Below are positions 3,502 through 62,130 of a stretch of DNA of 64,000 nucleotides, in pieces. Location of the stretch: positions 43,377 through 107,376 of the forward strand of contig JBIKKO010000001.1 of assembly GCA_044360315.1 (NCBI GenBank). Reading direction: 5' to 3'. Position numbers and translations under genes: made by a program. The notes under the pieces are model-generated. The model worked only from the letters and a program-made list of their open reading frames with translations, was not told the DNA's origin and made no database searches. How positions within the stretch are numbered: position 1 is the stretch's first letter; each line of letters begins with the position of its first letter. This stretch comes from Oligoflexales bacterium (lineage in GTDB: Bacteria > Bdellovibrionota_B > Oligoflexia > Oligoflexales > RGVZ01).

Positions 3502-3668
3502 TCTTTCTCCTTAGTATCGGCTGCAGACTAGATTTCTAAAGCCCGCTTTAGCAAAGTTCGTCGAATTATAGCGAGAACCGAGTGTTTTGACTTCTCAAAT
3601 AATTGGGTCATACTCTTATGAATATCGGACATTTCGACGCTCTCGCCTCATCTATCAGTCCTAGAGGC

Positions 3669-3884
3669 CTTCAATATCTTCATCACTGTCGCAGCCTGCC
3701 ATTTAGCACGCCGCGACTTCGTCGGCACTCCCATGGAATTCAGGATATCGGCAATTTTCCAATAGCTGACACTTTGTCACGGAGATCAGCCATATGCTTC
3801 ATGGTATCTAATTCACGCTGGCTCACCTCAACCCGCCCCTTGATTACTTTTGATCCATATCCAATCTGCCCAGGCCGATACCAC
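3669..3884. repeat. 216-bp direct repeat, copy 1 (partner at 13714-13929)
   Basis: Aligned by hand. About 12 mismatches, all within the first ~95 bp. The last 122 bp (3763-3884 versus 13808-13929) are identical. Confidence 0.9.
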
Positions 3885-13685: not shown

Positions 13686-13713
13686 CAGGCGATATCTCTG
13701 TCACCTATGATAC

Positions 13714-13929
13714 CTTCAAAATCTTCATGACTGTTGCAGGCTGCCATTTTGCTCGCCAAGACTTCGTCGGCACGCCCATGGAATTGAGGATATCGGTAAT
13801 TTTCCATTAGCTGACACTTTGTCACGGAGATCAGCCATATGCTTCATGGTATCTAATTCACGCTGGCTCACCTCAACCCGCCCCTTGATTACTTTTGATC
13901 CATATCCAATCTGCCCAGGCCGATACCAC
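13714..13929. repeat. 216-bp direct repeat, copy 2 (partner at 3669-3884); also a dead large-serine-recombinase fragment on the minus strand
   Basis: Same alignment as copy 1. The minus strand reads GRGWYRPGQIGYGSKVIKGRVEVSQRELDTMKHMADLRDK. It has the same frameshift as copy 1 plus an extra TAA (13807 mismatch). Confidence 0.9.
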
Positions 13930-13996
13930 CCTCGACCAGACCCACCATGATCATAAACCTTGGCCGAGGAACCATTCCGAAATCAAAAGATTTAAC

Positions 13997-14587
13997 TTAA
14001 TAGACAAACAATACCCCCGCAAACCAGCTCAGAACATTCCCTGTGATAGCCAAATCTTTACCAGCTGATGTGCGCTCCGTGTCAAGCCACGCCCACTCAC
14101 CGCGCCCGCCCGCCGTCAATCCAAAATTTGAACCAAGCCCCACGCGGACTCCGACATCCATCAGCAACTCAGGACGTATACTGGACTCGTCAATCCCTAG
14201 CTCCGGAATTTTTACATTCGTTAAAACCCATGATAAACCCGGTTTGAAGTAGAAAAAACCCAATGACAAGGGCAAATGAAACCAATCCCACGTAAAACGA
14301 CGATAATGTCCTGCGGCATCTCCTTTTAGAGCATGATCTGAGTAGGTAAAGTCCCAGCCCAGACCAACGGCGCCGATATATTTAACATCAACCTTGGCGC
14401 CACCGAAAATATTCAAATGATAAGCATTGGCTGGCTTCAGATAATCACGAAGCTTTCCTTGGGGAGATGCTTTACCTGCCTCCAGAAGAAGTTGTGCCGT
14501 GGCCTTGGGAGCCTCTGCGGTTGCAGTCGTCGCCAATGAAAAGCAGAATATTAGTTGAATGATGCGAACAAAGTAAGAGCGTGTCAT
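13997..14587 (-). CDS. hypothetical outer-membrane beta-barrel-like protein
   Basis: Internal ATG at 14587 gives the signal peptide MTRSYFVRIIQLIFCFSLATTATAEA. The body has alternating beta-strand-like sequence and ends in an aromatic residue (...VLFVY). Confidence 0.5.
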   Translation of the reverse strand: MTRSYFVRIIQLIFCFSLATTATAEAPKATAQLLLEAGKASPQGKLRDYLKPANAYHLNIFGGAKVDVKYIGAVGLGWDFTYSDHALKGDAAGHYRRFTWDWFHLPLSLGFFYFKPGLSWVLTNVKIPELGIDESSIRPELLMDVGVRVGLGSNFGLTAGGRGEWAWLDTERTSAGKDLAITGNVLSWFAGVLFVY

Positions 14588-42458: not shown

Positions 42459-43390
42459 TCACCGCTGGAGAGAGAGGTGCTTGACCTTTCGGCGGAGATA
42501 ACTCTATCGTGGCCGGACAGATCTTTAGCTACTTTTATTTTCTCCCATCCGGCTGCAGCAAACAAATGGGCAACTTTTGCACTCTGAGAAAACCCCACCT
42601 CAAGGAAGATTTTTCCGCCCGGCCTAAGAATTCTATGATAGTTGGAGGCATAGTGCCGATAGAAGCCTAACCCCTCTGGATCGGTCGCAAACAGCGCTGT
42701 TCTTGGCTCATAGTCTAAAACGCTACGCCCCATCAACCCTGTCTCAGACGCGGCAATATACGGAGGATTTGAAACAATCAAATCAAACGAACTATCTTCA
42801 ATAGCATCAATGCAAAGAGCATCTTGACTCACAAAATTAATGTTATGAACTTCATTGTCGACAGCGTTCTTACGGGCCAAGTCTAAAGCATCATCATTCA
42901 CGTCCCAACCAACAACGGACGCTGAGGGCAACTCACTGCCGATTGATACTGCAATACATCCAGAACCGGTACCTACATCTAAAATCTTTGGACTAGATAA
43001 GGCCTGAACTGCGCGAGAGGCCAGCTCAACCAAAAGTTCAGTTTCAGGTCGCGGGATTAGAACATGACGATTGACCTGAAAACGATGCCGATAAAAGTCT
43101 CGATAGCCGAGGATATAAGCAACTGGCTCAAACTCATAGCGACGCTTCAAAAAAATCTTAAAACTATTGCGTTCTTCTTTTGTGAGTGGTCTATCAAGTT
43201 GAAGAAAGAGATTCACCCTGTCAAATCCCAAGGTTGCGGCCAAGAGAATCTCTACATCGAGCCTCGCCGTCAACTTTAACTCGGGGTCACGGTTGGTTAA
43301 ATACTCACAAGACCAGGCTAGAACACGCCGCACCGTCCACAGATCTGGATGGCTCTTTGCTTCAGACTCTTGATCATAATCACTGCTCAC
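42455..43390 (-). CDS. prmC: peptide chain release factor N(5)-glutamine methyltransferase
   Basis: LIPRPETELLVE, SAM motif ILDVGTGSGCIA and catalytic IVSNPPYI. It is translationally coupled to prfA. Confidence 0.88.
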   Translation of the reverse strand: MSSDYDQESEAKSHPDLWTVRRVLAWSCEYLTNRDPELKLTARLDVEILLAATLGFDRVNLFLQLDRPLTKEERNSFKIFLKRRYEFEPVAYILGYRDFYRHRFQVNRHVLIPRPETELLVELASRAVQALSSPKILDVGTGSGCIAVSIGSELPSASVVGWDVNDDALDLARKNAVDNEVHNINFVSQDALCIDAIEDSSFDLIVSNPPYIAASETGLMGRSVLDYEPRTALFATDPEGLGFYRHYASNYHRILRPGGKIFLEVGFSQSAKVAHLFAAAGWEKIKVAKDLSGHDRVISAERSSTSLSSGE

Positions 43391-47963: not shown

Positions 47964-48458
47964 ATGACGCGCTACCCAACGAAAATGAAGACGATATGTA
48001 CGGCGATTTTGTTAGTTTCTGGAACAGCCACAATGGCCTTAGACCTTGACCTTGAGCTCAGAGTCACCGGTACAATCTCTGGCTCGCCACAGTGGCGTGA
48101 TCAAAGTGATCAAGTTATTAACTTCACCGAGCTTAGTTTTGCCTCAGGTTTACCCAAAGAACCGGATACCCACCGCGATTCAGCCGCGAACACGGTGAAG
48201 CTCGTGAACATGCGGACTGGTTACGCCAGTGTTGAAGTTACCGTTCCTAGCGGTTGCAAAATCGGCGAAACCAATGTCGACGGCCAACACGTCAAAGTAC
48301 TTGTTGCAGGAGCACCGAAGTCCAACTCCGAAATCATCTCCTTTAGTGAAGGAGTCCAATATCCCGTTGCGCTACGATTTGATGCCGCGGGTCGCTACGG
48401 AGACAAGATTGGTGACGTCCGTTGTACTCCCGGAAAACTTCGTTACAACTACATGTGA
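47964..48458 (+). CDS. secreted pilin-like protein, paralog 1 (family shared with 52013-52516 and the C-terminal half of 49233-50063)
   Basis: GGAGG 8 nt upstream. After the signal peptide comes an alternating strand LDLDLELRVTGTI. Conserved motifs P.W, GC.IG and RC..G.LRY.Y (PSGCKIGETNVDG...VRCTPGKLRYNYM). Confidence 0.5.
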   Translation: MTRYPTKMKTICTAILLVSGTATMALDLDLELRVTGTISGSPQWRDQSDQVINFTELSFASGLPKEPDTHRDSAANTVKLVNMRTGYASVEVTVPSGCKIGETNVDGQHVKVLVAGAPKSNSEIISFSEGVQYPVALRFDAAGRYGDKIGDVRCTPGKLRYNYM

Positions 48459-49219
48459 CAGTTCGATAGTTTCTGCAAAGACTTTGTCGACAACCACTGT
48501 ATGATCACTTCAAAGCAGGCATTGCTTGTGTCTTTAGGCGGGGCATAGCCTGCTTCTAGCGTCACGGTCTTGCGATATGGATCAATAATTTTATCACTCG
48601 CCAACCGAACAAAGCGCATCATCTTTTTGCTATCTTTGTCCATAATCTTTGCGGAAATTGACGCCACAGCAGGCATAGTCATGGTCTGCAAATCCAAATC
48701 AAAAACCGCAATTTTTTCTGTATCTGTCACGCGGGTTGAGAACTTTGGTGTAGCAATACTTACGGGATCTGCATTCAAGATATACAAGATCCCAGGCTGA
48801 TAACTAAAATCAAAGGCCACACTGTTGGATCTCGAGTCTCCCGCTACAATCGGCGAAAATACAGGCTTAAATAGCGCATAACGTTTGGCGGCCTGTATCA
48901 TCTGCACATAAGCTTCAACGCTTCCAGAACTTTGGATCTCAAATTTTTTCGGGTTTATCTCATTGGAAATCTTCAGATTGAAGTACCGTGTGCACTCGTC
49001 ACTCTTAATAGCTACGCCATCAACTTCGCACTCATAAGCCACGTCCATCGTCATTGGGTTCTTTAACTGGTTATGCACATTGAATGAAGCCGTCTTTTCC
49101 TGCTTCATTAAATACTGCGACATTGGCATAATCACAGCCGAGCCTTGGGCTACTGCCCGTGTTTCAAAGCCTAGAAGGATATAATACATTAAAAGACTAA
49201 GACTGCCCGATAAGCGCAT
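48449..49219 (-). CDS. periplasmic chaperone-like protein (two beta-sandwich-sized halves)
   Basis: GAGGAG RBS and signal peptide. Its size is similar to PapD-like chaperones. The N-terminal pattern AVIMPMSQYLMKQEKTASFNVHNQLKNPMTMDV resembles the first chaperone strand region. Last gene of the operon. The assignment is inferential. Confidence 0.35.
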   Translation of the reverse strand: MRLSGSLSLLMYYILLGFETRAVAQGSAVIMPMSQYLMKQEKTASFNVHNQLKNPMTMDVAYECEVDGVAIKSDECTRYFNLKISNEINPKKFEIQSSGSVEAYVQMIQAAKRYALFKPVFSPIVAGDSRSNSVAFDFSYQPGILYILNADPVSIATPKFSTRVTDTEKIAVFDLDLQTMTMPAVASISAKIMDKDSKKMMRFVRLASDKIIDPYRKTVTLEAGYAPPKDTSNACFEVIIQWLSTKSLQKLSNCHM

Positions 49220-49232
49220 TGCGACATCTCCT

Positions 49233-50063
49233 CTAATATGAATAGGTTAATGAACCCCTGCTATCACACCGAATCAAACCAAACTTATCTCCCATGCGCG
49301 CCTCAGACTTAATCCGAAGTGCCAACGTCACAGAGGATGCGTGCGCTATACTTAGAGTCCCACCATCAGGAATGATCAGTGAGCCCGACTTCAAAACAAG
49401 AGCACCGCGACTAATCGCATGCCCTCCGATTTTACAACCGTCCGGAGCTAAATACATGGTTGATGCGGGATAAGAAACAGCATCAACCAATCGCACCGTC
49501 ACCGCACGCGAGTCTACATCCACATCAGCCTTTTTACCTGCGATCAAATCATCAAATGAAAAGTAAACCTGCGATAGCTCTTGGCCCTGGGATGATTGCC
49601 ATTTAGGTAGCCGACGGACGTAGCCGACCACTTGAAATTCAACGATAACGGTACCCGTATTGAGTTCACGTAGCTCTGCGCTTGTGCAACTCAAAACACC
49701 TTCCGTGTCCGATGGAGTGCGAATACTCACGTCGACAGGAAATCCAGACTGGAGAAGATCAACTGAAGAAAACATACTCTTTCCAGCGATCTTAAGTTCC
49801 AACCGATCCATGCGACGCCCAGACACTAAGCAACTCGGCATCTCTAAAACAAAATTTGCACTCGTGGACTCACCCCGAAACGAATACTCAAGATTAAAAC
49901 GTCTAGACGTAGTCTGACCCGCAAAGACGTCTTGAATATCAAGACTGACTTTATCGATCGACGCACCCGTCGATGTGACCATCTTAGTGACGCCAACGGC
50001 TCGATTCGCCAAGCTCATCATAAGCACAGCCATCAATAATGTTGTTAACGTTTCAGCTCGCAT
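49233..50063 (-). CDS. two-domain secreted protein: unique N-terminal domain plus C-terminal pilin-like domain (tip-adhesin-like architecture)
   Basis: ATG at 50063 gives signal peptide MRAETLTTLLMAVLMMSLA; the track's upstream start is GTG. The C-terminal half (LPKWQSS...APDGCKIGGHAISRG...IRCDSRGSLTYSY) aligns with the two small paralogs. Confidence 0.5.
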   Translation of the reverse strand: MRAETLTTLLMAVLMMSLANRAVGVTKMVTSTGASIDKVSLDIQDVFAGQTTSRRFNLEYSFRGESTSANFVLEMPSCLVSGRRMDRLELKIAGKSMFSSVDLLQSGFPVDVSIRTPSDTEGVLSCTSAELRELNTGTVIVEFQVVGYVRRLPKWQSSQGQELSQVYFSFDDLIAGKKADVDVDSRAVTVRLVDAVSYPASTMYLAPDGCKIGGHAISRGALVLKSGSLIIPDGGTLSIAHASSVTLALRIKSEARMGDKFGLIRCDSRGSLTYSY

Positions 50064-50067
50064 CACG

Positions 50068-51990
50068 TCACTGACCTCGACCACGCAATATCACTTTGAT
50101 CCGCCCTCGATCCTTAATTGCACCATCCACAGCCTCATGGTCAAAACCACCAAACTGATAAGAAAAGGGCAACAGACTTTCATTAATTAATAGTTTAACA
50201 TTAGAACGTCTTGATACATAAACATAATTATTTGCATATCGACAGCCATCACAACTCACTATAGACTCACTTAACTCACTAATATGATTATTCAACGCAA
50301 CAGCCTCGAACGAGCCATTGGGAGCTTGGACGACGAAGTCAACAAGCATCTCACGATGATCACTCAACGTTAACGTGACGGATTTTTCCTGCCATACTTC
50401 AGACACAAACACCCCTTGTCGCACCTCTTCAGTCCCGTTTACAAAGCGTAGCTCATAGTCTCCGCAGCATTTGGCTTCAAAAAATTCTGTAACGCCATCA
50501 CCCTGGAGCTGTCTACTTACCAACAACTGTCCGTTTTGTAACAGCTCCATATTGCCATCAACCACTGCGGCTCCTGGGGCATTAGATCGCACATTAACTT
50601 TGATCAGACGCTTGACCAGTTTCTGCGATATCGACCTCAAGTTGTCGGAGAAAAAATACCGTAGATTACCAATAAAGGAAGATTGTCGAACTTTTTTACC
50701 CTCGAATGAAGCACCAACCCCAGCCACGATCTGATCGCCGTCATAGCGAACGCCCAAGGTATTAGACCATAATTTTCGTTGTAAGATACTTGCTGACTGA
50801 TCCCAAAAATAAGTCCATCGATCACCCCTCACCTCGATATGCCCACCCGTTGACTCAGAAAACGTATCGGGCAAACCATCCTTTGCAAACTGACGAAAAC
50901 GACTAACAAAAGACTTCCGCTGTAACGTTCGACTTATCTTCACCGACAGGCGCTGACGACCAAAGGCTTCCGCGTTGAATCCTGTTGTAATCATATGCGG
51001 CAATAAGCCATACTCCAAGGATAACTCGGTACGCGCGTACGTGAAAAAAGACTTAAGAATCCATTGATCGATGAGACAGCCTTTATGGTGAGGACAGCTG
51101 AGACTATTAAAGTTTGCCAAGCGCAAGACGTTAAACGGTCGAAACGTTCCTTCAGCTCGAACGTTATAACGACCCTCCGTGGATCCCAATTCATCCTTCC
51201 TCCATTGATACCTAGTTACAATCCCTAGGCCGAACGACCCTGCACTGACTGACATGTATCGGTCAAACGTGTGTGAGACCTTCCCAGTCGATGCCTCCTC
51301 ACGACCATATCCAAGGCCAAGGGGCTGCGGCGTCCGAAACCATGTGATGTCTTGCCATCCGTCTCGATCCATGTAAATGGACCGGGAGTGACTCAAACTA
51401 AATCCAAGCAAGCCGCCGTTAAATCGAAACAACATGTCATTCTGCTTCGGACCAATGGTGCGTTGATGTCCGTATCCTAAATAGTGCTCCCCAAATTGAT
51501 GTAGGACATCAGCCGAGTCAGAGGCAATAATGGCACCAAAATTATTCTGATGGGACTTCCTTACGGTTAACTGCAATTGGTCCAGACTCCGATCACTAAT
51601 CTCAACGTCATAAGACCTGACGTCTGCACCTCGATGAAACACTGACAATCCTACGGATGAATTTGGCCGTAACACTTTGGACCCTATGTCGCTTAGGGAG
51701 TGACGGGATCGACTTTTAAACTCCAAAGAATACACAAGCGATCGATCCGGGCAGTCAATCAGCAGTGTGGCTGATCGATCCGAAACACCAAGTGCTATAA
51801 CCCGCAGTTGGCTATTTGGCTCGATCTCAAATTTATAGTTCGACGTATCATCAAGAAACGCAAGACACGACGAATCCGGCAAAGAAACGTTTTGTTCGGT
51901 GTCATCTGTGTAAAACGTAAGAGTCTTAAAATCCTCAGCCAGTAGGGCAATGGGGACTAAAAGAAGCCCAATTGAGAAAACTAGCCTCAT
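50068..51990 (-). CDS. usher-like large secreted/outer-membrane protein
   Basis: Internal ATG at 51990 gives signal peptide MRLVFSIGLLLVPIALLA. An N-terminal ~100-aa domain, a central ~330-aa Gly/aromatic-rich beta region, then a carboxypeptidase-regulatory-like beta-sandwich (IKVNVRSNAPGAAVVDGNMELLQNGQ...GDYELRFVNG). The assignment rests on context and architecture only. Confidence 0.35.
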   Translation of the reverse strand: MRLVFSIGLLLVPIALLAEDFKTLTFYTDDTEQNVSLPDSSCLAFLDDTSNYKFEIEPNSQLRVIALGVSDRSATLLIDCPDRSLVYSLEFKSRSRHSLSDIGSKVLRPNSSVGLSVFHRGADVRSYDVEISDRSLDQLQLTVRKSHQNNFGAIIASDSADVLHQFGEHYLGYGHQRTIGPKQNDMLFRFNGGLLGFSLSHSRSIYMDRDGWQDITWFRTPQPLGLGYGREEASTGKVSHTFDRYMSVSAGSFGLGIVTRYQWRKDELGSTEGRYNVRAEGTFRPFNVLRLANFNSLSCPHHKGCLIDQWILKSFFTYARTELSLEYGLLPHMITTGFNAEAFGRQRLSVKISRTLQRKSFVSRFRQFAKDGLPDTFSESTGGHIEVRGDRWTYFWDQSASILQRKLWSNTLGVRYDGDQIVAGVGASFEGKKVRQSSFIGNLRYFFSDNLRSISQKLVKRLIKVNVRSNAPGAAVVDGNMELLQNGQLLVSRQLQGDGVTEFFEAKCCGDYELRFVNGTEEVRQGVFVSEVWQEKSVTLTLSDHREMLVDFVVQAPNGSFEAVALNNHISELSESIVSCDGCRYANNYVYVSRRSNVKLLINESLLPFSYQFGGFDHEAVDGAIKDRGRIKVILRGRGQ

Positions 51991-52012
51991 AGGCGGTCCT
52001 AAAATCGACCAA

Positions 52013-52516
52013 TCAATCGTAGGTATACCGCAAACGACCGGGGGTCTGGCAGACCACCGCACCACTGAGATGTGCATAGCCTCCTATGGCCGAAAAACGG
52101 ATATAAAAGTCGTGTAAAACCCCAGTTCTGAGGGGAATCATTCCATCTGTATAATACTGAAGTCCGTGAACAAAGTAAACATGTCCATCTGCAACGCGTT
52201 GATCGCCAATGAAGCACTCCTTCGGTCTACGCATCTCAATTGAAACATTCGTAATGACACCATTTATATCCAACATTGCCTTGCGGATATCAGAATCCAC
52301 ATTCCTAAACCGATCGATCGTATTTGAGATCCGATTGAAGTTAAAACTAAGATTGTCGATCACGTCTTTATTCTCGTTACGCCAGACAGGCGCTGGACGA
52401 ATCATACCGCCGACATCAAGACGCAAGTCGATACTGTCAGCCCATGCAGCAGAATTAATAAAAAGCGTAATCGACGCGAGGACACCGATAGGGATCTGTT
52501 TAAATTTACTCACCAT
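52013..52516 (-). CDS. secreted pilin-like protein, paralog 2
   Basis: After the signal peptide comes the alternating strand SIDLRLDVGGMI. It shares the family motifs of 47964-48458 (PAPVWRNENKDVI, PKECFIGDQRVADG, VVCQTPGRLRYTYD). Confidence 0.5.
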   Translation of the reverse strand: MVSKFKQIPIGVLASITLFINSAAWADSIDLRLDVGGMIRPAPVWRNENKDVIDNLSFNFNRISNTIDRFRNVDSDIRKAMLDINGVITNVSIEMRRPKECFIGDQRVADGHVYFVHGLQYYTDGMIPLRTGVLHDFYIRFSAIGGYAHLSGAVVCQTPGRLRYTYD

Positions 52517-52540: not shown

Positions 52541-53284
52541 TCAAGCACAGGCACGCGACGCATTTAAAAGATCAAGGAACTCATGTAGTGTTTGCAAAGG
52601 AAGCTGACTAAATTCAAGCCCCAATTGGACTCTCCCCACTCCCTCATCTGCATTTTGCTTCTCGGTCCAGCGTAAGCGACCATAGCCATCTAAATGGAGT
52701 GTCTTGTCGCTTTTCTTCGGAATAGAAAAACGAATCTCATCCCCTGCCGTCCAGTCCTCACATGAGCGTTCTAAAACAATCTTCATCCCCTTTGGGCTTA
52801 GGTCGCAAATATTTCCATGTAGTAACCCAGATGTACCGAGCTTTTTCAGTAAACAAGGTACTTGTACCGTATTCCGGATGCGCCCAGGACCATATCCCTG
52901 CTTTCTTGCATCCAGAAATTTATCAAGGGCTGTGATGATTCTAGCTACATTTGGCAAACCTGAAATCACAGCGTAAACAAGCTCTTCAACCATCAAATCC
53001 ACATGATCAACATGACTAGCATTCACCAAAAAAACGGGGCGCGCTTTGGCAACACTACGAATCTTCTGTAATAAAAATACCGCCTTCATTTTCCTTTGCT
53101 CGCAATACTGTCCATCGATCAGTATTGCCACTGGCTTTGATGAAATGATGTCGTCAATCAAACGAGCCTTGTTCTTGGAGTAAACAATGTTATAACCGCT
53201 AGACTTCGCCTTCTCCGACTCTTCGCTTGAAAACTCGGTATTGGAGTAAAAAAGTATATTTTGAACATTCTCGATGGAAGACAC
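52541..53284 (-). CDS. degenerate receiver-like domain fused to a PilZ domain (GTG start)
   Basis: The N-terminal ~125 aa have a REC-like alternation but lack the acidic pair (ILFYSNTEF; AILIDGQ). The C-terminus has DLSPKGMKIV (DxSxxG) and the beta-barrel pattern of PilZ. The RxxxR motif is degenerate (GRIRNT). Confidence 0.65.
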   Translation of the reverse strand: MSSIENVQNILFYSNTEFSSEESEKAKSSGYNIVYSKNKARLIDDIISSKPVAILIDGQYCEQRKMKAVFLLQKIRSVAKARPVFLVNASHVDHVDLMVEELVYAVISGLPNVARIITALDKFLDARKQGYGPGRIRNTVQVPCLLKKLGTSGLLHGNICDLSPKGMKIVLERSCEDWTAGDEIRFSIPKKSDKTLHLDGYGRLRWTEKQNADEGVGRVQLGLEFSQLPLQTLHEFLDLLNASRACA

Positions 53285-53796
53285 TGGTGCACCCCCCCGG
53301 TTCGCCCGCGCCGCTTCCAGGCGACACTCACATAAGAATTATTCCTACTCATCATCATGAAATGCTGCATCAATCGGGTCAACCCCCAGCCAATCAACCT
53401 GACTAACTATGAAAAAATCTCTCGCTACGTAGGCGCCAGAGACTGGTGAATTGGCGATGCCTAAGAGTCAGCAACATTTGATTTTATGCCTCTGAATAAT
53501 AATTTTACAAAGGGCAAGAAAATTCTCATCATGACCGCTGGGTCACACATAATTTATCTTTATGAATATCAAGACAAACTCGCCGCACTAGGTAAAATCG
53601 ATCCAGGAATAAAGACAAGTTTCTACATTTTCACGTGTGAATCTAGCCATTCAGAGCCCACTGCCAGTGTTTTCTTTGGAAAATCCAAAAGAATTCCATT
53701 GCGTGTAAACGCTATCGTCATCGCATTGACGTGAACGATACCTAATGAGGTGACAACTTTCGCCGATAAAGCCTGTACTTGAAAAGGAGTCAGTCT

Positions 53797-54843
53797 ATGC
53801 GCTCTGAAATACAACATCAGAAAGACGACAACATCATGACTGAGGATCGTCTCCGTAGGCATCTATTTTCAAAACCTAAAGCAAAATTTTGGGGCTTTGA
53901 TGAAGCGAACCTGACCATTGGGTTGGAAGTCGAATACTTTATCGCAAAAATTTCAGGGTCAAAATTTCGACTTGCGACGAAGGATGACTATATTCAAGTC
54001 ACAAGCATTCTAAAGGAGCGTTTTAACTACATCGACCAAAACCTGCTTGATCAGCCAGGGCGTCTAAGTAAAGATACAGAGTCTGGCTTTATTGCAATTA
54101 AGCCAGATTTTGCATGGCACATTCTAGAGATTTCGTTTCCACCAAGACAGAATTTGGACCAATTACGTGACATCATCACAACCGTTTTCACGGAGGTTGA
54201 CACCGCACTATCAGAGCTTCATTTGGAAAGACTAGATCTAAGCTGCTTACCCAATACCCCCAATGACATTGATTTCGTTGCCCTTGATCGACTCAGGGAT
54301 ATATCGACAACATTTCGACCAAAGTCTCTTACAAATCCCACTCAAGATCCAAATTTCCCTGCTTATATCGCCGCCACGCATATTCACCTCAACGCTGGCT
54401 CTGAAGATATACTAAAGCACATGCCTCAACTATTCGCACTAGACCCTTTGATTAGTAAGAAGTTTACAAGAGCCAACGAATTTAACGGCCGATTTTATGA
54501 AAATGCCCGTACACGGATGTATCGCGATACGTTGGGAGACGACTACCTCCTCCACACTTATCCCAAGGATCCGGCATACGATTTGGCCTCATTGGTTAAG
54601 CTGATGAATAATTCTCCCAAGCTCTTTCCATCCGATCCTTTTTTTCCAGTTAGAGATATGTCGTACATAAGGATAACGCGGTTTGGAACGCTCGAATTCA
54701 GATCATGTTGCTCATTTAAATCGGTCAATACACTATTAAAAATCGCAGAGTGTCGCATTGCGCAGCTTCTTGCCGCTACGGCCATTGACACACATAGACT
54801 AGTTACACTACTTGGTGATGATTATCAGGAGAAGCCTGCGTGA
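53797..54843 (+). CDS. GCS2/YbdK-like carboxylate-amine ligase
   Basis: I prefer the ATG at 53797, with AAAGGAG 7 nt upstream, over the TTG track start. Motifs IGLEVEYFI, ILEISFPP, ATHIHLN, RTRMYR and GTLEFRSCCS follow the order of glutamate-cysteine ligase family 2 motifs. Confidence 0.6.
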   Translation: MRSEIQHQKDDNIMTEDRLRRHLFSKPKAKFWGFDEANLTIGLEVEYFIAKISGSKFRLATKDDYIQVTSILKERFNYIDQNLLDQPGRLSKDTESGFIAIKPDFAWHILEISFPPRQNLDQLRDIITTVFTEVDTALSELHLERLDLSCLPNTPNDIDFVALDRLRDISTTFRPKSLTNPTQDPNFPAYIAATHIHLNAGSEDILKHMPQLFALDPLISKKFTRANEFNGRFYENARTRMYRDTLGDDYLLHTYPKDPAYDLASLVKLMNNSPKLFPSDPFFPVRDMSYIRITRFGTLEFRSCCSFKSVNTLLKIAECRIAQLLAATAIDTHRLVTLLGDDYQEKPA

Positions 54844-57698
54844 ATGTCGCGGCCGAGAAAAATGTAAGAAATGTATGTACTGCCATCTTTCTATTTTCGG
54901 CGGTTCTATACATCCTTTCTGGCTTAATAACACATTTAAAGCTAACCACACTTGAAGCTTCCAAGATTAATTTAAGACAAATTGAAACTAACTGCACAAG
55001 CGACATATGTTCGGCTCGGTGGACCTTCATTCCAGATTCGCGATTTATTCTACTCGGGCAAATTCTTCGAACACATGAACTAATCGATACAACTTCTGGA
55101 ACATCTTTGGCCCCGGTTAACCGGGTCAAAGGCACCATTTCAGACAGTTGGCTCCGGCTACAGGTGTACGAGGTTAAACCCGGTAACGTGTATGAGGTGC
55201 GCGCCTCCAAACCATCAAGCGCGAAACTTGGATTTTTTGTCGGCATACTTCCTCGTCAAACCAATAATATGGGGATTCTTAGTGTACCAGAGCTCGGCCA
55301 AACGATAACAAGCCTTTGCCTACTATTAACCCTAACAACATTATGCATCATTATTTCAGCCAATCTTCTGTCACTCAGCCGCCAATTCGCATTGACGCCA
55401 GAAAAGAGAAGTCAGATTGTAGCGGCTATTATAGCATCCTTGTTAATTGCACTCTCAGCTCAAATCAGCTCTGGAGTCTTCGATTCACTATTCCCTGAGG
55501 GTGACTCTCGAAATCGGCTGCTTCGAACCTTCTTCCTTGCAGGGTCGATTGTATTTGCAGCCCGAAACAGACTGCATTTGCTTGGAAAGACAAGCAGAGC
55601 GCCAATGTTTTTTTACGTATCGATAATTTTTTTGGGATCCTACCTAGCATGGCCATTATTACGACAAGGAACATACTGGGCCTTCACAGTCGGGACCGTC
55701 TCGGTGCTCGGTGCGATCCAGCTATTTCGGAATCGTGAGATATTTCTTGGAATATTTTGGCTTTCAGGCATCATTGACGCTTTACGAATTCTGGGACACC
55801 TCTCGATTGGAGACTATCCACCAATATATGTCAACATTATTTTTGCGCTAGTTACACTTGGCATGGCTGCGGGCAAAGCAGGTGGATTCACAACCATCGC
55901 TCTCGCAGGTGGTATGTTCCACCGCCTGAGAAGAGACGTTCTTATTGAGTCTATTAAACGACGACTAAGTGAAACGAAAAACATCGATAGTTCAGCAAAG
56001 ATCTTTGCGCTAAAACCGGTAATGCCAATGATAGCAGACTTTCTTCAGGCACAACGAATAGCCCTGACCATTAACCTCCCGCTCGGGCGACCTATTACAC
56101 AGATTCATGATAACCATTTGGAGTCCGACATCTGTTTTGATGACGGGACCATTCCGGGCGCCGTTACAATGCGCACAATTCTCTATGGTGATAATATTTT
56201 TTTTGAATCTTTTTCAGACTACGCAACACGACTTGGCCTTGATTCAAACCCAAATTTGATATCAGCAAAATATTTCTGCACAATCCCAATACGAGTCAAC
56301 AAAAGCGTAGTCGGAACTCTGATGCTTACAAAATTTTGCGATTCAGTTATTGAAAAAAAATTAGCTTCAGGTGACCGGTTAAATGAAGAACGGCAAAATA
56401 TTGACGCTGTAGTAGTTGCACTGGAAAGTTGTATTTCTGATCTAATTGTTCAAAACCTCGACACATCCGTAAATTTATCAAAAACGTTACACAAAAGACT
56501 TCACGAGGGATTATCAAAATGTAGTAGCTTCTCAGACTTCGTCGCAATGTATGCTCAGCGGATCGGTGAAATCTGTGATAGTGGCGTGATAATACATACT
56601 CGTGTCGAAAACTTGGGAGTAGCCGTGACACATTTCGGCCTGCCCAACAGCGCATGGGATTTCTTGTGCCATAATCCACTCAATCTAGATCCACTATCCG
56701 CATCACCAGTTGGTCCAACTATCGTGGCATTCGTTGAGTCTCGAAGTAGCTATGTAAAAAAAGTTCGCGAAATTTCACATCAGCTTCACCATAAAACGAT
56801 TGCCTTGTTTGATATGATCGGAGCCGAAAGTCTTGCAGCGATACCCTTAGTCTCTGATTCAAGAGTATTCGTGGTCACATTATTCAGGTCTGGTGACACA
56901 GGCGCTACGGATCCAGCCGTTGTTCAGATAGTCGAGTCCACAGAAGCACTTTTTATAGCGGCTCTAGAAATCATGAGCCAACGAACCTCCGTTGTTGCTC
57001 TCGGTGAACTCACAAGTAGACTTATTGGTGACGCGGAAATAAGAACAAAAATTGTTGAGGCGGCAAAAACTAAAACCTTACCTACAACGATAGGAAGCCC
57101 CAGGTCATCGCTATTACTCCTGTTCGATTTGGTCGGGAGTTCTGACCTGACTAAAGATACCGAACTCAAGGCACGGGCATACGGAGTTTTCTACGACTCT
57201 GTAAACCGGATGGCCCAGGATTTGTTTCAAGGAACAATTCGGAAGACCATTGGTGACGCTGTCATTATTACATGGGACGGTCACATCACTGGTCCCTCAA
57301 CCGATCCAAAATTCCTGCCTAAGCTATTCTCTTTAGCTAACTATGCAGACCAGATTGCAAATGAAATTGGTTGCCGGGGGGCACGAGCACTTCTGCATCA
57401 TGGTAACTATTTTCTTGGTTTAGTTGGTACCGAGACTTTTGGTCAAATCGATGTCATCGGAACAGGAATAGATGAGGTATGCAAAATGGAAGGGCTTATG
57501 AAGCACCTTGATATTGACGGTAAACCAGCAAAAATAGCAATCTCCGAAAGGGCTGTCCAATATTTGGAGCCCGTGTTTACGTTAGATTCCAGTCTGAAGT
57601 ATTTTATCGATTTACAAGATAAAGGTTTGTCAAAATCCAAAATTAGATTTGCATCTGCAACGTTAAAAACCCTAAAGGCGGACTCTAATGTCGCATGA
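54840..57698 (+). CDS. 7TM receptor (7TMR-DISM-like) with GAF-like middle region and a divergent class III nucleotidyl cyclase domain
   Basis: N-terminal anchor plus a ~130-aa extracytoplasmic domain, ~7 TM helices (aa 150-370), and a ~350-aa alpha/beta region. The C-terminus carries LLLLFDLVGSSDL...IRKTIGDAVIITW...LLHHGNYFLGLVG...IDVIGTGIDEVCKMEG. A GTG start overlaps the ligase stop by 4 nt. Confidence 0.65.
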   Translation: MNVAAEKNVRNVCTAIFLFSAVLYILSGLITHLKLTTLEASKINLRQIETNCTSDICSARWTFIPDSRFILLGQILRTHELIDTTSGTSLAPVNRVKGTISDSWLRLQVYEVKPGNVYEVRASKPSSAKLGFFVGILPRQTNNMGILSVPELGQTITSLCLLLTLTTLCIIISANLLSLSRQFALTPEKRSQIVAAIIASLLIALSAQISSGVFDSLFPEGDSRNRLLRTFFLAGSIVFAARNRLHLLGKTSRAPMFFYVSIIFLGSYLAWPLLRQGTYWAFTVGTVSVLGAIQLFRNREIFLGIFWLSGIIDALRILGHLSIGDYPPIYVNIIFALVTLGMAAGKAGGFTTIALAGGMFHRLRRDVLIESIKRRLSETKNIDSSAKIFALKPVMPMIADFLQAQRIALTINLPLGRPITQIHDNHLESDICFDDGTIPGAVTMRTILYGDNIFFESFSDYATRLGLDSNPNLISAKYFCTIPIRVNKSVVGTLMLTKFCDSVIEKKLASGDRLNEERQNIDAVVVALESCISDLIVQNLDTSVNLSKTLHKRLHEGLSKCSSFSDFVAMYAQRIGEICDSGVIIHTRVENLGVAVTHFGLPNSAWDFLCHNPLNLDPLSASPVGPTIVAFVESRSSYVKKVREISHQLHHKTIALFDMIGAESLAAIPLVSDSRVFVVTLFRSGDTGATDPAVVQIVESTEALFIAALEIMSQRTSVVALGELTSRLIGDAEIRTKIVEAAKTKTLPTTIGSPRSSLLLLFDLVGSSDLTKDTELKARAYGVFYDSVNRMAQDLFQGTIRKTIGDAVIITWDGHITGPSTDPKFLPKLFSLANYADQIANEIGCRGARALLHHGNYFLGLVGTETFGQIDVIGTGIDEVCKMEGLMKHLDIDGKPAKIAISERAVQYLEPVFTLDSSLKYFIDLQDKGLSKSKIRFASATLKTLKADSNVA

Positions 57699-59604
57699 TT
57701 CGATAAAATTACAGTTCAATCCAAAACCGCGCGTGATCTGCAAATCACGCGTGATCGCTGGAATTCTTAGCGAAATGGAGGCCGCTGAGGCTACAATATT
57801 GATTCGATCGTCAAACACAAATAATAGCATACCTTTCAAAATGAATTGTGATTTTAGACTACCATTTGAAGAATCAACTATCCGCCTCTCTGGAGAGGCG
57901 ATTAAGGCGGGCACCTATCAAGCAACAGTATTGTTTGCAGGCCAGAGAATCCTTTTCGAAATTCATGTAAATGATCAATCAGGCATCTGCCAATTCCCGA
58001 GAAAAATAGATATTATTGATCTTAGACAGAGTAAGCGCAGAACGTTCGGTCCAGAGTCCCAAACCGCCGAGATTTTTTCAAACCATGTGGTAATTTTTGC
58101 CGTGCCGGTTGATCTCAGTCTAAATTCACTTGCGTTAGTGTCAGCTGTCTCGGATCCGCCATTGCGCATTGGGGAGCAAGTAGCTGTAAGAATTCGCGGA
58201 GGAGTCGATTCTAAGGATGTATTTTCCTCAGAAATGGAAGTGAAAGATGTTGATCGTTCTTCCGCAACAACCCGAATACTTCTTGGAATGATCCAACCAA
58301 AATCTCGCGACGTCGAGGCAAACTATAGGAGACTGGAGCGAAAGGCATTAGCCAACATATCCTTACAAATTGTGCCTATGGATCATAGTATTGGCGAACC
58401 GTTGACAGTTCAAGTAAAAGACATTTCACTAACGGGTCTAATGATTGAGTGCGATGATAGTCCAAAAGTAGCCTGGCTGACCCCAGGACTGCACATAAAG
58501 TTAGATACCGGCGTCGTTCACGCAACTGTAATGTGGCGTGATGGACAAAAAGCGGGGTTGAGGCTTGATGCGTTGGATGAATCCAGAACGTTATCAAGCT
58601 GGTTTGATGTTCTTACGCGCCTGATCCCAGCGAACTCAATCCATCACTCTCAGGTGGATGATCTAGTTAATTTGTTCACGGAGTCTGGATTACTCAAGGG
58701 ATCCAGACGAAAGGTTTACGGGACACGACCGGGAAAGTTTCTGCCGCCGGAGACGGTTACTGGAAACCCTCTTTTATATCATCGATTTGCCTCTCATATA
58801 GAGGGCGGCATAATCGCAAGTCAGCTAAGCATGGTTCGTTTAACAGATGAGTTTTGGTGCATCCAAGAAGGAAGTCATAACGGGGAAACTTCAGCGCTTT
58901 CGTATGATGAAATTGCTATAAGAATATTCAAGATTGCTGAAAACCTAGCAAAGGGATCCCTTTTAGCTCCTCGTTTTTTTGGAGGGTTAATACATGGATC
59001 CGTTAAGTCATCTGTAAACATCATGGAAAAAATGCTTCTAAAAACCTCAAATTATAGATACGAGGCGTTTCATTTATCATTGACAGCGCAATCCTTTGTT
59101 CAAGAGCGAAAACTTTCTGATCTTAGACTAGCTGATATAAGAATGATGCCTGCTGAGAAACGAAGACAGGTTGCTAACTCATTTGACGCGACGCTTTTTG
59201 AGATCTTCTCAGGATTAAATGGATCACACCCGAGATTAAATTCAGAACTTAGTAAGCTTGGCCCATCGCATCACGCCAAAACCTTTGCTATTTCTCTGAA
59301 CAATTCTTTTTTGGGACTGGCTTACAGGCTTTCTAGTTATTACACGCTTAGCAGCACGGGCGTTATAAATAGCCTGTTTTTTGTAATTAAAGAAGGAATT
59401 GATCCAGATGTAGTTTACTGTGGTATCAATCAGCTTCAAGAAAGCGGGCTGATGCGCGGTACAGACGATATTGTTTTGATAATGGATAAAACTTCAGAGA
59501 CGATAGGATGTACCAATGATACATGGTCCAAAGAACTCAACTCATCATTTAAAAATTTGAAACCGTTTGCGTTATACGTTATCGATGCGCTGCTAGGTGT
59601 CTAA
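57688..59604 (+). CDS. tandem PilZ-domain protein with an unassigned ~330-aa C-terminal domain
   Basis: PilZ 1 has RQSKRR...DLSLNSL (second motif degenerate). PilZ 2 has RRLER...DISLTGLMI (both motifs canonical). 11-nt overlap with the cyclase gene. Confidence 0.65.
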   Translation: MSHDSIKLQFNPKPRVICKSRVIAGILSEMEAAEATILIRSSNTNNSIPFKMNCDFRLPFEESTIRLSGEAIKAGTYQATVLFAGQRILFEIHVNDQSGICQFPRKIDIIDLRQSKRRTFGPESQTAEIFSNHVVIFAVPVDLSLNSLALVSAVSDPPLRIGEQVAVRIRGGVDSKDVFSSEMEVKDVDRSSATTRILLGMIQPKSRDVEANYRRLERKALANISLQIVPMDHSIGEPLTVQVKDISLTGLMIECDDSPKVAWLTPGLHIKLDTGVVHATVMWRDGQKAGLRLDALDESRTLSSWFDVLTRLIPANSIHHSQVDDLVNLFTESGLLKGSRRKVYGTRPGKFLPPETVTGNPLLYHRFASHIEGGIIASQLSMVRLTDEFWCIQEGSHNGETSALSYDEIAIRIFKIAENLAKGSLLAPRFFGGLIHGSVKSSVNIMEKMLLKTSNYRYEAFHLSLTAQSFVQERKLSDLRLADIRMMPAEKRRQVANSFDATLFEIFSGLNGSHPRLNSELSKLGPSHHAKTFAISLNNSFLGLAYRLSSYYTLSSTGVINSLFFVIKEGIDPDVVYCGINQLQESGLMRGTDDIVLIMDKTSETIGCTNDTWSKELNSSFKNLKPFALYVIDALLGV

Positions 59605-59700
59605 TGGGAGGGTCATAGTCTTCACCTCTGAAAATCTTAAATATATGCTTGATAATTACTAGCACCTCATCCAAAAAGTTTTTCCCTGTCCTGATTTCGG

Positions 59701-60837
59701 ATGATCTGCGCTGATTTGTCTTTTTGCCACAAAGATTGGGCGAATGATGAAAGCGCTGACATTGAATATGAAGAGCCCCGTGTCATCCGACGTGCCGATA
59801 TCCTAAGCTTCTTGCACAACAGAATGAGCTCGGGACTCATTACCAAGGTGTTGCACGTTGACCCGAAGACTGTTCGGAATGTGGCACATGTGCACCTCGA
59901 AGACGGCACGGATGCGGCTCTGTAATAGGACGAAAGATCTGGTCGCCCGATTGATTTTGATGATCATGAACGTTCTCGGATTGTTACTATTGTTTGTAGT
60001 GACCCACCCAAGTGCAGCTATAGTTGGACGCTTGATCTCAATGTAGAAGAGACAAATAAGCGTTGTTTGACGGACGGTACTATAAGTAGGGAATAAGTGT
60101 GTATTATCTTGGAATAGCATGAAGTCAAGCCTTGGCAAGAAAAAATGTAGCGTGTTCCAGAGCTAACTACGGGGTTTATTGATAGAATGGAAGACGTGCT
60201 TGATATTTATTCGGGGCCCTACAACCCTGAATACACTGTTGTTTGCGTAGATGAAAAGCCAGTGCCTCTTGTGGGGGATACAAGGGATCAGGTGCCCATG
60301 AAAGAGGGATCCGTCAGAAAAGTTGACTATGAATACGGAAGAAACTGCTCAGTACACGTATTCGTAGGGGTTGAGCCTAAAATTGGGCGATATTTAAATG
60401 AAGTGACGGAGCAGCGCTGCAGTACTGACTTTGCAATGATTCTGTATACACTTGCAGCTGCGTATTCTGAAGCGAGGAAAATTATTCTAGTCATGGATAA
60501 CCTATCGACGCACAGTAAGATGCCGCTGACAGAGTCCTTGGGAGAGGAACTCGGCACGCAGGTTTGAGAGCGTTTCGAAGTACACCATACGCCCAAGCAT
60601 GACAGATGGCTGAATCACGCTGAAACAGCCATTGGTAGGTATTCGCACCAATGCTTAGGAAGTGGACGGGTCGGCGATATCAAGTACAGCAAGGCTCTGA
60701 CGTCGGCTGGGAACAAGTCGATTAATAAAAAGACCACTAAGATTCATTGGCGATTTACAAAGGCAAAAGCTAGAAAAGGCTTCAGATTTGAAACGACGGT
60801 ATCAGGAAAGGGAAAAAATTTTTGGACGAGGTTCTAG
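59701..60837 (+). pseudogene. IS630-family transposase pseudogene (multiple in-frame stops and frame changes)
   Basis: Reads through as ...DERSGRPIDFDD...YSWTLDL...HEVKPWQEKM..., then MEDVLDIY...VVCVDEKPV...ILVMDNLSTHS...EVHHTPKHDRWLNHAETAIG (DDE triad context). It is interrupted at 59924-59929 (TAATAG), near 60085 and 60115, and at 60565. Confidence 0.8.
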
Positions 60838-60919: not shown

Positions 60920-61726
60920 TTACTTCAAACCAAACATATCGATGGTTAGAACAGATAAATCATCGGCGTTCCCAGGATCATTCGATTGGCGAATCTGCTC
61001 AACAAAATCGATGACTATCTGTTTCAGACGCCTCCGATCATCGGTTGAAAGAGCGACGGGAAGGGTGATAAACCTATCGTTTTCAAGGTTCGTGTTTATA
61101 CGATCAATAGCTTTTAGACGCCAGTTCATATGAAATCGTCTGGCATCGAGAAACTGACTAGACTCTAACGGGACTGGACTTGCGACAATTCGGTCACCAT
61201 CGGCTATGACTAAACCCAACTGCACCAAAGTATCGACCGCTTCGTCGATCACTGCCGTTGGTAGGTGCAGATATCTTGCAAGAGCGCTAACGGACTGATA
61301 CTTAGGTATCTGACACAGCAAACAAACCGCAGGATAAAACCAATTTGAATTCAGGCGCTCCACGTTTGCTTTGTTGCTTGCACTGGGATTATTGGGATTA
61401 TGGGTTGGGCGTTGACTGGCAACGCTGATGAGGCGATCACGCTTACCCAATAGAAATGACTTCAATTTGGACGTGCCGGCTCTCTCAATGTCAACTAAAC
61501 ACATGAAGTATTCTGTTGCCGCGTCATCCATCCCGAGGAATGCGGCCACATCTCTGGCCTGTTCAGGGCTAAAATCCTTCTGACCTTTAAGGATTTGACT
61601 AATAAGGCTTGGATGAACACGCAGGAACTCAGCAATCTTTTTAACACTTCCTCGGCCAAGAGCGGGATCAGACTCGATACGGCTTACCATGTACCTTTTG
61701 TAATCGGTGAATTGATAGATGTTCAT
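60920..61726 (-). CDS. TIGR02147-like HTH protein (DUF4423-type C-terminus)
   Basis: Internal ATG at 61726 gives MNIYQFTDYKRYMVSRIESDP...GSVKKIAEFLRVHPSLISQILKGQKDFSPEQA. I recall this N-terminus for the TIGR02147 paralog family of Bdellovibrio and Fibrobacter. Confidence 0.55.
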   Translation of the reverse strand: MNIYQFTDYKRYMVSRIESDPALGRGSVKKIAEFLRVHPSLISQILKGQKDFSPEQARDVAAFLGMDDAATEYFMCLVDIERAGTSKLKSFLLGKRDRLISVASQRPTHNPNNPSASNKANVERLNSNWFYPAVCLLCQIPKYQSVSALARYLHLPTAVIDEAVDTLVQLGLVIADGDRIVASPVPLESSQFLDARRFHMNWRLKAIDRINTNLENDRFITLPVALSTDDRRRLKQIVIDFVEQIRQSNDPGNADDLSVLTIDMFGLK

Positions 61727-62130
61727 GGAACTGCACTCCCGCATTAACCGTGGACTAGAAATCACACCGCACCGCTACCGAATGCTTTCATGAAGGCTCG
61801 ACTCGTATCTCTTACACGTCACCCCCCTAGGTGTACAAAACAACTCTAGGGTTAGTCATGACATGCGACCCCTTCAAGGGTCATCAAATACGCTTAGGGA
61901 GGAAGTCGTAACTTAGACCAAGTTATTTAGGCCACACTGATTCACTCAATATTCCAGGGCCTTAGGCATAGGATTTAACTCTGGGGATACTAATTTCTAG
62001 CTGGCAAAGCGGTAGGGACATGGCAGTCTAGACCAGGGCCTGCCAAATTGGCGGGTTACTGGATCAGGAGCGCTTTATGAGCAAACGGTCAACTGTCAAC
62101 GGTAAGGGGCTAGGATTAGGACGTCCAAGC

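Follow-up and report, generated by a model that had tools for sequence, protein, structure and literature searches.

Layout and conservation of the three-gene locus

The DNA analysed here is a 64,000-nucleotide (nt) stretch of contig JBIKKO010000001.1 from an Oligoflexales bacterium (positions 43,377 to 107,376 of the forward strand, assembly GCA_044360315.1), hereafter called the window. It contains three overlapping genes on the same strand, gene 1, gene 2 and gene 3, whose predicted products are a ligase of the GCS2 type, a membrane sensor with a domain homologous to class III nucleotide cyclases, and a protein in which PilZ domains precede an acyltransferase fold (Table 1). An earlier note on this DNA, made by reading the sequence, had described the three genes as a translationally coupled operon, and its coordinates and both overlaps proved exact. 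The junction between gene 1 and gene 2 reads GTGA, the GTG start at 54840-54842 overlapping the TGA stop at 54841-54843, while the ATG of gene 3 at 57688 overlaps the final 11 nt of gene 2 (TGA at 57696-57698). The open reading frame (ORF) of gene 1 is 354 amino acids (aa) long from TTG 53779 and 348 aa long from ATG 53797. As an AAGGAG sequence (53785-53790) lies 6 nt 5′ of ATG 53797 and the public gene model is also 348 aa long, ATG 53797 is most likely the start; residue numbers of the gene 1 product nevertheless count from TTG 53779 throughout.

Table 1. Positions of the three genes, their domains and two adjoining features in the window (position 1 is its first nucleotide).
Feature	Position	Strand	Description
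Gene 1	53797..54843 (ORF from TTG 53779)	+	Predicted divergent GCS2/YbdK-type ATP-dependent carboxylate-amine ligase, 348 aa
Gene 2	54840..57698	+	952 aa; GTG start; membrane sensor, tandem GAF domains, class III cyclase homology domain
Gene 2, N-terminal sensor	54873..55892	+	Hydropathy scan and invariant columns
Gene 2, tandem GAF region	55962..56984	+	aa ~375-530 and ~545-715
Gene 2, divergent class III cyclase homology domain	57087..57584	+	aa ~750-915
Gene 3	57688..59604	+	638 aa; ATG start; PilZ-like domain, PilZ domain and acyltransferase fold
Gene 3, PilZ-like domain 1	58003..58287	+	aa ~106-200; R113xxxR117, D142xS144xxS147
Gene 3, canonical PilZ domain 2	58315..58587	+	aa ~210-300; R214xxxR218, D245xS247xxG250
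Gene 3, tandem-GNAT/Fem-like fold	58765..59601	+	aa ~360-638
Divergent 247-aa protein	52541..53284	-	C-terminal PilZ; degenerate receiver-like N-terminus
Decayed IS630-family (DDE_3) transposase remnant	about 59695-60834	+	Between gene 3 and DUF4423 gene; not part of the module

Start and stop codons overlap by 4 to 16 nt at the same junctions in the homologous loci L001 and L002, and overlaps are also kept at the rearranged junctions of loci L013 and L028. Because comparable overlaps recur in these four loci, the arrangement is not due to chance, and the predicted translational coupling of the three genes is a conserved property. Terminator and promoter scans of the locus were uninformative.

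Homologs of the three products fell into 62 clusters for gene 1, 12 for gene 2 and 23 for gene 3, with 34-66% identity and without names. In a scan of species-representative genomes, relatives of gene 1 turned up only in metagenome-assembled genomes (MAGs) of Oligoflexales/Oligoflexia, in a single MAG of Bacteriovoracaceae, and in a small number of other MAGs that bear the loose labels Proteobacteria or Pseudomonadota and, in one case, Polynucleobacter. Judging by isolate names, several of the MAGs with gene 1 come from freshwater lakes.

Conservation of the triad across genomes, which the earlier note had proposed to examine, was confirmed: wherever a related locus extends far enough, all three genes are present. 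As far as the contigs reach, the order is gene 1-gene 2-gene 3 in L001/L006, L002/L003, L005, L007, L008, L009, L010 and L011. The order is gene 1-gene 3-gene 2 in Bacteriovoracaceae UBA4573 (L013:3973-9834), where the third gene is a distant relative of gene 2 (hhalign 97.6%, 811 columns), and gene 3 precedes gene 2 on the unbinned contigs L028 (83-4854) and L030 (1-3508). A single ORF of 1561 codons in L008 (JAPLFV010000416.1, MCX6119880.1; L008:1227-5909) unites gene 2 with gene 3. Its clean in-frame junction joins position ~919 of gene 2 to position ~20 of gene 3; the C-terminal tail of gene 2 is lost, as are the ~20 aa with which gene 3 begins, and the fused polypeptide is predicted to have the architecture 7TM-GAF-GAF-cyclase-PilZ-PilZ-tandem GNAT (TM, transmembrane helix). 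Neighbours outside the triad are not conserved among the related loci, and the module therefore appears self-contained.

Overlapping genes are common in compact bacterial genomes, and the three genes could be functionally unrelated neighbours that are merely tightly packed. We consider this very unlikely, since the three co-occur in every informative locus while the other neighbours change, and since their order is permuted with adjacency kept and has once given way to a fusion of genes 2 and 3. Taken together, the conserved co-occurrence, the permuted order and the fusion argue strongly that the triad is a functional unit and, in particular, that the products of gene 2 and gene 3 are physical partners. 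Two homologs in these loci are broken: that of gene 3 in L012:6378-7676 over three frames, and that of gene 2 in L007:11038-13894 over two. The MAGs concerned have low coverage, and the breaks are probably frameshift errors of sequencing or assembly, not signs of pseudogenes.

Predicted activities of the three proteins

The gene 1 product generated no Pfam or NCBIfam match, even at E ≤ 10, and a precomputed Pfam domain was present on none of the 62 homolog clusters. HMMER searches against PDB sequences, with the single sequence or the family profile, returned noise only, as they did for the other two genes. An AlphaFold2 model built from 36 homologs (predicted local distance difference test score, pLDDT, 91; pTM 0.89) gave plant glutamate-cysteine ligase (GCL; 2gwc) as its top Foldseek match in the PDB (E 1.9e-13, TMq 0.66-0.67). 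It also matched E. coli YbdK (1r8g, E 6e-10) and, more weakly, glutamine synthetases (GS), E. coli GCL and PafA/Dop (about 1e-5 to 1e-4). On this model, the protein has the GS/GCL fold, its nearest structural matches being plant GCL and YbdK, both members of GCS2.

Profile comparison pointed in the same direction. The gene 1 family aligned with six GCS2 proteins taken from plasmid records (Pfam GCS2 E 1e-52 to 1e-98) over 225 columns (hhalign 92.2%, E 5.9e-7). In this alignment GLEVEY falls on GiEeEf (the ExE motif), LEIS on qiE (E), THIH on HVHV (HxH) and LEFR on vE.R (ExR). The ordered motifs that the earlier note had read in gene 1 are thus present in the translation, and all 36 homologs keep E50, E52, E117, H201, H203, R298, E306 and R308. 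The protein therefore resembles the GCS2 family (PF04107; YbdK, plant GCL, EgtA) in its GS/GCL fold and in the register of the ExE, E, HxH, R and ExR motifs. It differs in belonging to a family of its own of at least 62 clusters, which come without exception from Oligoflexia-type MAGs, with only 14-17% identity to the solved members and scores below the Pfam and NCBIfam thresholds. The ligase assignment of the earlier note accordingly holds by fold and profile, although it fails hidden Markov model (HMM) validation taken literally. Given the fold, the profile match and the complete set of invariant catalytic motifs, gene 1 probably encodes an active, very divergent member of the GCS2-type carboxylate-amine ligase group.

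The gene 2 product likewise had no Pfam or NCBIfam match in the standard whole-protein scan. Three of its homologs are labelled "class 3 adenylate cyclase" by JGI. When the gene 2 profile was run against 1.84 billion representative proteins, the 70 hits consisted of the family itself and a few GAF-region matches, and no canonical cyclase was among them. HMMER alone cannot bridge this gap, and profile-profile comparison was therefore used.

In the N-terminal part, hydropathy indicates a 1+7 topology, with TM1 at aa 12-30, seven more hydrophobic segments at aa 156-351 and, between them, a predicted extracytoplasmic domain of ~125 aa (aa 31-155). C52 and C57, a Cys-x4-Cys pair (window 54990-55010), are invariant in this domain and may form a disulfide or a redox/metal site. 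The earlier note had seen a 7TMR-DISM-like sensor here, a claim not borne out beyond the 1+7 topology: in 10 diverse members of the family, PF07695 and PF07696 matched nothing within the first 375 aa at E ≤ 1, and the window protein gave no match either.

A GAF-like region follows. In the window protein, GAF_2 stayed below threshold (E 0.066 in a sub-region Pfam scan at E ≤ 10), but distant relatives pass the Pfam GAF cut-off of 22.4 bits (P0138, 31.6; P0142, 30.6; P0144, 31.4; P0143, 28.8). Above-threshold matches lie at aa 389-514 of P0138, at aa 613-685 of P0151 and at aa 532-638 and 572-635 of P0143, and PF01590 is precomputed on the homologs P0070 and P0074. Two GAF domains in gene 2 are thus supported transitively, through distant full-length relatives that pass the cut-off at both positions.

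At the C-terminus, Pfam Guanylate_cyc (PF00211) did not match the whole protein or the isolated C-terminal part at E ≤ 10. In profile-profile comparison, by contrast with the HMM scan, the close gene 2 family aligned with eight plasmid-encoded cyclases (Guanylate_cyc E 3e-14 to 1e-30) at 92.2% (hhalign, E 5.8e-7), and a wide 23-member alignment including distant relatives did so at 98.2% (E 3.4e-14, 155 columns). An HMM built from the eight cyclases matched gene 2 alone among the 159 ORFs of the window (E 1.3e-6), and the gene 2 homologs alone among 754 ORFs of related loci. A cryptic diguanylate cyclase (GGDEF) was rejected as an identity for this domain (hhalign 0.3-1.3% against six GGDEF domains). 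D763 and D806 align with the metal-binding aspartates (FxDixGFT and IGD) and are kept across the wide family with one exception, P0143. K802 and D871 occupy the positions of the ATP-type substrate pair, D871 being conserved throughout the wide family and K802 mostly so. By these alignments, the C-terminal domain is a genuine class III homolog. The class III cyclase of the earlier note thus stands in its profile homology and its metal and substrate residues, and falls short in the Pfam HMM and in the transition-state Asn/Arg, which are considered below.

The closest general likeness is to the cyanobacterial CyaB1/CyaB2-type class III adenylate cyclases, in which tandem GAF domains lie N-terminal to the cyclase domain. 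Gene 2 shares with them the GAF-GAF-cyclase order and both residue pairs, the two Asp for metal and the Lys/Asp for substrate. It differs in its N-terminal 1+7 TM sensor, in having no PAS domain and, by inspection, no NKFDE motif, in the replacement of Asn/Arg by Asp/Lys, and in being too divergent for Pfam Guanylate_cyc. The gene 2 family ends in a conserved [V/A]-A, which takes forms such as NVA, HVA, KAA and RAA and is found in very remote members as well. These last residues, at 57672-57695 in the window, are missing from the L008 fusion and might mark the protein for degradation or function as a recognition motif.

In gene 3, Pfam and NCBIfam recognise a single PilZ domain (aa 218-298; PF07238, E 2.1e-8; 34.9 bits, cut-off 22.5). 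The earlier note had proposed two PilZ barrels, the second with canonical RRLER and DISLTG motifs. The second is indeed canonical: R214, R218, S247 and G250 are invariant in 23 homologs, and 22 of the 23 have D or N at position 245. The first is less certain, with PilZ matches found in 6 of 16 family members and all below threshold (best E 1.2e-4), and an hhalign comparison of domain 1 with domain 2 was not significant. R113, R117 and D142 are invariant nonetheless, S144 and S147 are present in 22 of 23 homologs, and the second motif reads DxSxxS; aa 106-200 are a probable divergent PilZ domain. The earlier note had suggested that the PilZ domains might read the product of the cyclase, or that the GAF domains might sense a small molecule made by the ligase. 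Because both PilZ domains keep motifs of the type that binds cyclic dimeric guanosine monophosphate (c-di-GMP), ordinary c-di-GMP binding is favoured for gene 3.

The remaining ~330 aa, in which the earlier note recognised nothing, indeed have no Pfam match, but their fold could be identified. No Pfam acetyltransferase family matched gene 3, sub-region scans at E ≤ 10 included. An AlphaFold2 model of aa 296-638 (pLDDT 79.6) had 163 Foldseek matches in the PDB at E ≤ 1e-3, and the best 50 of these were almost all tandem or double-GNAT proteins (probability 1.00). The matches include the tandem GNAT MAB_4324 (E 9e-10), VipF and a clavulanate tandem GNAT, and also GlcN N-acetyltransferase, FemX, Eis, MprF DUF2156 and N-myristoyltransferase. 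The model thus identifies this region as a tandem-GNAT/Fem-like acyltransferase fold. A basic linker of high conservation (GLLKGxRRKxYG, aa ~325-345) leads into it, and HxxVKSS and GTDD segments are conserved in the C-terminal region.

An architectural precedent for gene 3 is PixB (MXAN_2604) of Myxococcus xanthus, which has two PilZ domains and a GNAT acetyltransferase domain and binds c-di-GMP; its function needs the acetyltransferase domain, which serves as the output, and its RxxxR motifs and the binding of c-di-GMP are needed for development (PMC8316039). The likeness is one of architecture, drawn against the published description: the order PilZ-PilZ-acyltransferase and an RxxxR motif in both PilZ domains. 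Gene 3 differs in an extra N-terminal domain of ~105 aa, in a PilZ spacing of ~100 aa against ~210 in PixB, in keeping the second-motif Ser that is missing in PixB, and in a tandem GNAT that Pfam does not see. It is moreover locked to a ligase and a cyclase-type sensor, whereas the neighbours of pixB are not named in that description (PMC8316039). A second comparison is offered by HfsK of Caulobacter crescentus, a Fem-like GNAT whose localisation and activity are affected by c-di-GMP and which is proposed to acylate holdfast polysaccharide (PMC5362036). HfsK shares with gene 3 a Fem-type double-GNAT fold under c-di-GMP regulation, FemX being among the fold matches of gene 3, but it binds c-di-GMP through an Arg-rich C-terminal tail instead of PilZ domains, and it has no ligase or cyclase partner. 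The earlier note knew of no described pathway that combines an amide-bond ligase, a cyclase of this type and PilZ domains. For the triad this agrees with limited literature searches, which found no description of a ligase-cyclase-PilZ/GNAT set; for gene 3 taken by itself, PixB is a precedent.

Flanking genes and the insertion sequence remnant

Housekeeping genes, namely rho, prfA, prmC and one resembling rimO, flank the block that contains the triad. The earlier note had placed it between insertion sequence (IS) elements. On the gene 3 side lies one decayed IS630-family element, with a DDE_3 match on the ORF at 60187-60567 and a frame interrupted by stop codons into four pieces, and no second IS630/DDE_3 copy was found in the window. 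In L001 and L005, a DUF4423 gene follows gene 3 directly, with no IS between them; the same IS630 insertion occurs on independent contigs with an identical gene 3. An IS-bounded mobile block was rejected in view of the single decayed IS on one side, the housekeeping flanks and the IS-free relatives.

A cyclase homolog in a tight operon with effector-like proteins, adjoined by an IS remnant, also recalls anti-phage defence of the cyclase-plus-effector type (Pycsar- or CBASS-like). We regard such a role as highly improbable. PADLOC matched neither genes 1-3 nor the upstream 247-aa PilZ gene, the locus lies among housekeeping genes, and synteny that is stable over Oligoflexales and related lineages at 34-66% protein identity fits vertical inheritance. 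In addition, an extracytoplasmic domain followed by seven TM helices is typical of environmental sensing, and the IS, absent in relatives, is a secondary insertion. A defence island was rejected on the housekeeping context and the PADLOC result.

Beyond the IS remnant, gene 3 is followed in the window by a DUF4423/TIGR02147 ("Fsuc_second") helix-turn-helix (HTH) gene (60920-61765, minus strand). In L001, such HTH genes lie on both sides of the block (1264-2079 and 13770-14579). These proteins may be local regulators.

On the other side, as the earlier note had described, the triad diverges from a fibre-like operon: on the minus strand lie the gene for the 247-aa PilZ protein and, following it, genes for proteins of 167, 669, 283 and 256 aa. 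The 247-aa protein matches Pfam PilZ (E 2.8e-9) and, weakly, an NblR-type receiver (E 0.03); this receiver-PilZ combination recalls PixA-type regulators, with the domain order reversed. Homologs 58-59% identical to it occupy the same position in L001, L005 and L006, and the gene is absent from L002 and L007-L013. In the stretch at 47964-52516, proteins of 167, 164 and 283 aa share a C-terminal domain of about 140 aa and are thus regarded as paralogous putative fibre subunits; the fibre-like set, including the 669-aa and 256-aa proteins, had no Pfam or NCBIfam match. As it adjoins the triad in no loci other than those of the closest relatives (L001, L005 and L006), this operon was left out of the module. 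Far from the triad, the window also holds a direct repeat of 217 nt with 94% identity, at 3668-3884 and 13713-13929, 10 kb apart.

A proposed signalling and acyl-transfer module

With moderate confidence, we propose that the three proteins form a coupled module, restricted to Oligoflexia/Bdellovibrionota, that places an amide/acyl-transfer step, carried out by two enzymes, under the control of nucleotide second messengers. The products of genes 2 and 3 would act as a physical complex. Binding of c-di-GMP to the PilZ domains would gate the gene 3 acyltransferase, as proposed for PixB, and the envelope sensor of gene 2 would add a second level of gating, either through a locally made nucleotide of the cyclic adenosine monophosphate (cAMP) type or through direct contact with gene 3. 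The gene 1 product would make or consume an amide-linked substrate of the acyltransferase. Ligation might come first and N-acylation second, by analogy with the pathways to N-acetylated dipeptides or thiols, or the acyl transfer might modify a surface polymer, as proposed for HfsK.

Partial parallels exist for both halves of this scheme. The mycobacterial Rv0998/MtPat is a cAMP-regulated GNAT protein acetyltransferase in which a CAP-type domain binding cyclic nucleoside monophosphates (cNMPs) is fused to a single GNAT. Like gene 3, it joins a nucleotide-binding module to a GNAT so that a second messenger gates acyl transfer; unlike gene 3, it uses a CAP-type domain instead of PilZ, has a single GNAT and has no dedicated cyclase or ligase in its operon. 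Pathways that pair a ligase with an N-acetyltransferase include MshC/MshD of mycothiol synthesis, MshD being a tandem GNAT, and Ngg, which makes N-acetylglutaminylglutamine amide. They resemble the triad in combining an ATP-dependent amide-forming enzyme with a (tandem) GNAT, a chemical analogy only; their ligases are aminoacyl-tRNA synthetase-like or ATP-grasp enzymes, and they lack second-messenger domains.

Several points weigh against the proposed module. The activities of the three proteins are predictions from sequence and structure models. No GGDEF motif or HMM match occurs among the 159 ORFs of the window, and no GGDEF gene was seen in ~200 kb of related loci. PilZ domain 1 of gene 3 (aa 112-194) scores below the Pfam cut-off (E 0.006, 17.3 bits), and the fusion of gene 2 with gene 3 is known from a single MAG contig. 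The gene 3 GNAT model reaches TM values of only 0.25-0.42 with a root-mean-square deviation of about 10 Å, which probably reflects a different packing of its two halves. The Q/RxxGxG/A acyl-CoA loop was not recognised in the gene 3 alignment by eye, and the GNAT-like domain might be non-catalytic or use another donor. In gene 2, the transition-state Asn is replaced by D878 and the Arg by K882, and distant members vary further (N/D/V/I at the position of 878, K/R/A/D at that of 882). Without the canonical Asn/Arg, the cyclase-like domain may perhaps not cyclise nucleotides.

The last point leads to a somewhat unlikely alternative that nevertheless deserves consideration, namely that the cyclase-like domain is an inactive dimerisation or regulatory module which controls gene 3 (and gene 1) by contact, the only nucleotide being c-di-GMP from GGDEF enzymes encoded elsewhere. 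The replaced and variable transition-state residues fit this alternative, as do the blindness of Guanylate_cyc to the domain and the absence of canonical cyclases among the hits of the family profile. The fusion and strict adjacency of genes 2 and 3 fit contact regulation, and both PilZ domains keep motifs of the c-di-GMP type. However, even distant members retain the two metal-binding Asp residues and the Lys/Asp pair, which is hard to explain without nucleotide and metal binding; within the close family D878 and K882 do not vary, and they are chemically conservative replacements.

The opposite alternative, in which gene 3 senses the cyclase product directly through its PilZ domains so that a class III cyclase-to-PilZ axis operates independently of GGDEF enzymes, seems improbable to us. 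It would account for the obligate adjacency of the cyclase and PilZ genes in both orders and their single fusion, for an unusual and invariant D878/K882 pair, for the absence of a GGDEF gene nearby and for the departure of PilZ domain 1 from the canonical motif (DxSxxS). Against it, the gene 2 domain is of class III and not GGDEF, and as its Lys/Asp pair is typical of ATP-using cyclases, the expected product is cAMP. PilZ domain 2 carries the full RxxxR and D/NxSxxG signature for c-di-GMP, and two surveys of PilZ architectures mention no association with a cyclase, nor with an acetyltransferase. We know of no PilZ domain that binds cNMPs. The extension of this idea to the whole triad, that the nucleotide of the Asp/Lys cyclase variant is sensed by PilZ and switches on a ligase and tandem-GNAT pathway for an amide-linked product, is in our judgement equally improbable.

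Returning to the proposed module, each part of the triad belongs to a known superfamily, yet standard annotation leaves genes 1 and 2 "hypothetical". The triad is a real, conserved and lineage-specific module of extremely divergent members of known superfamilies. By adjacency, permuted order and fusion, it couples a cyclase-type sensor to a predicted PilZ-gated acyltransferase, and this coupling could represent cross-talk between cNMP-type nucleotides and c-di-GMP, or a PilZ domain with a new ligand. PixB-like PilZ-acetyltransferases thereby gain a conserved enzymatic partner, a predicted carboxylate-amine ligase, which may be used to find their substrate, and three uncharacterised protein families are added for the poorly studied Oligoflexia.

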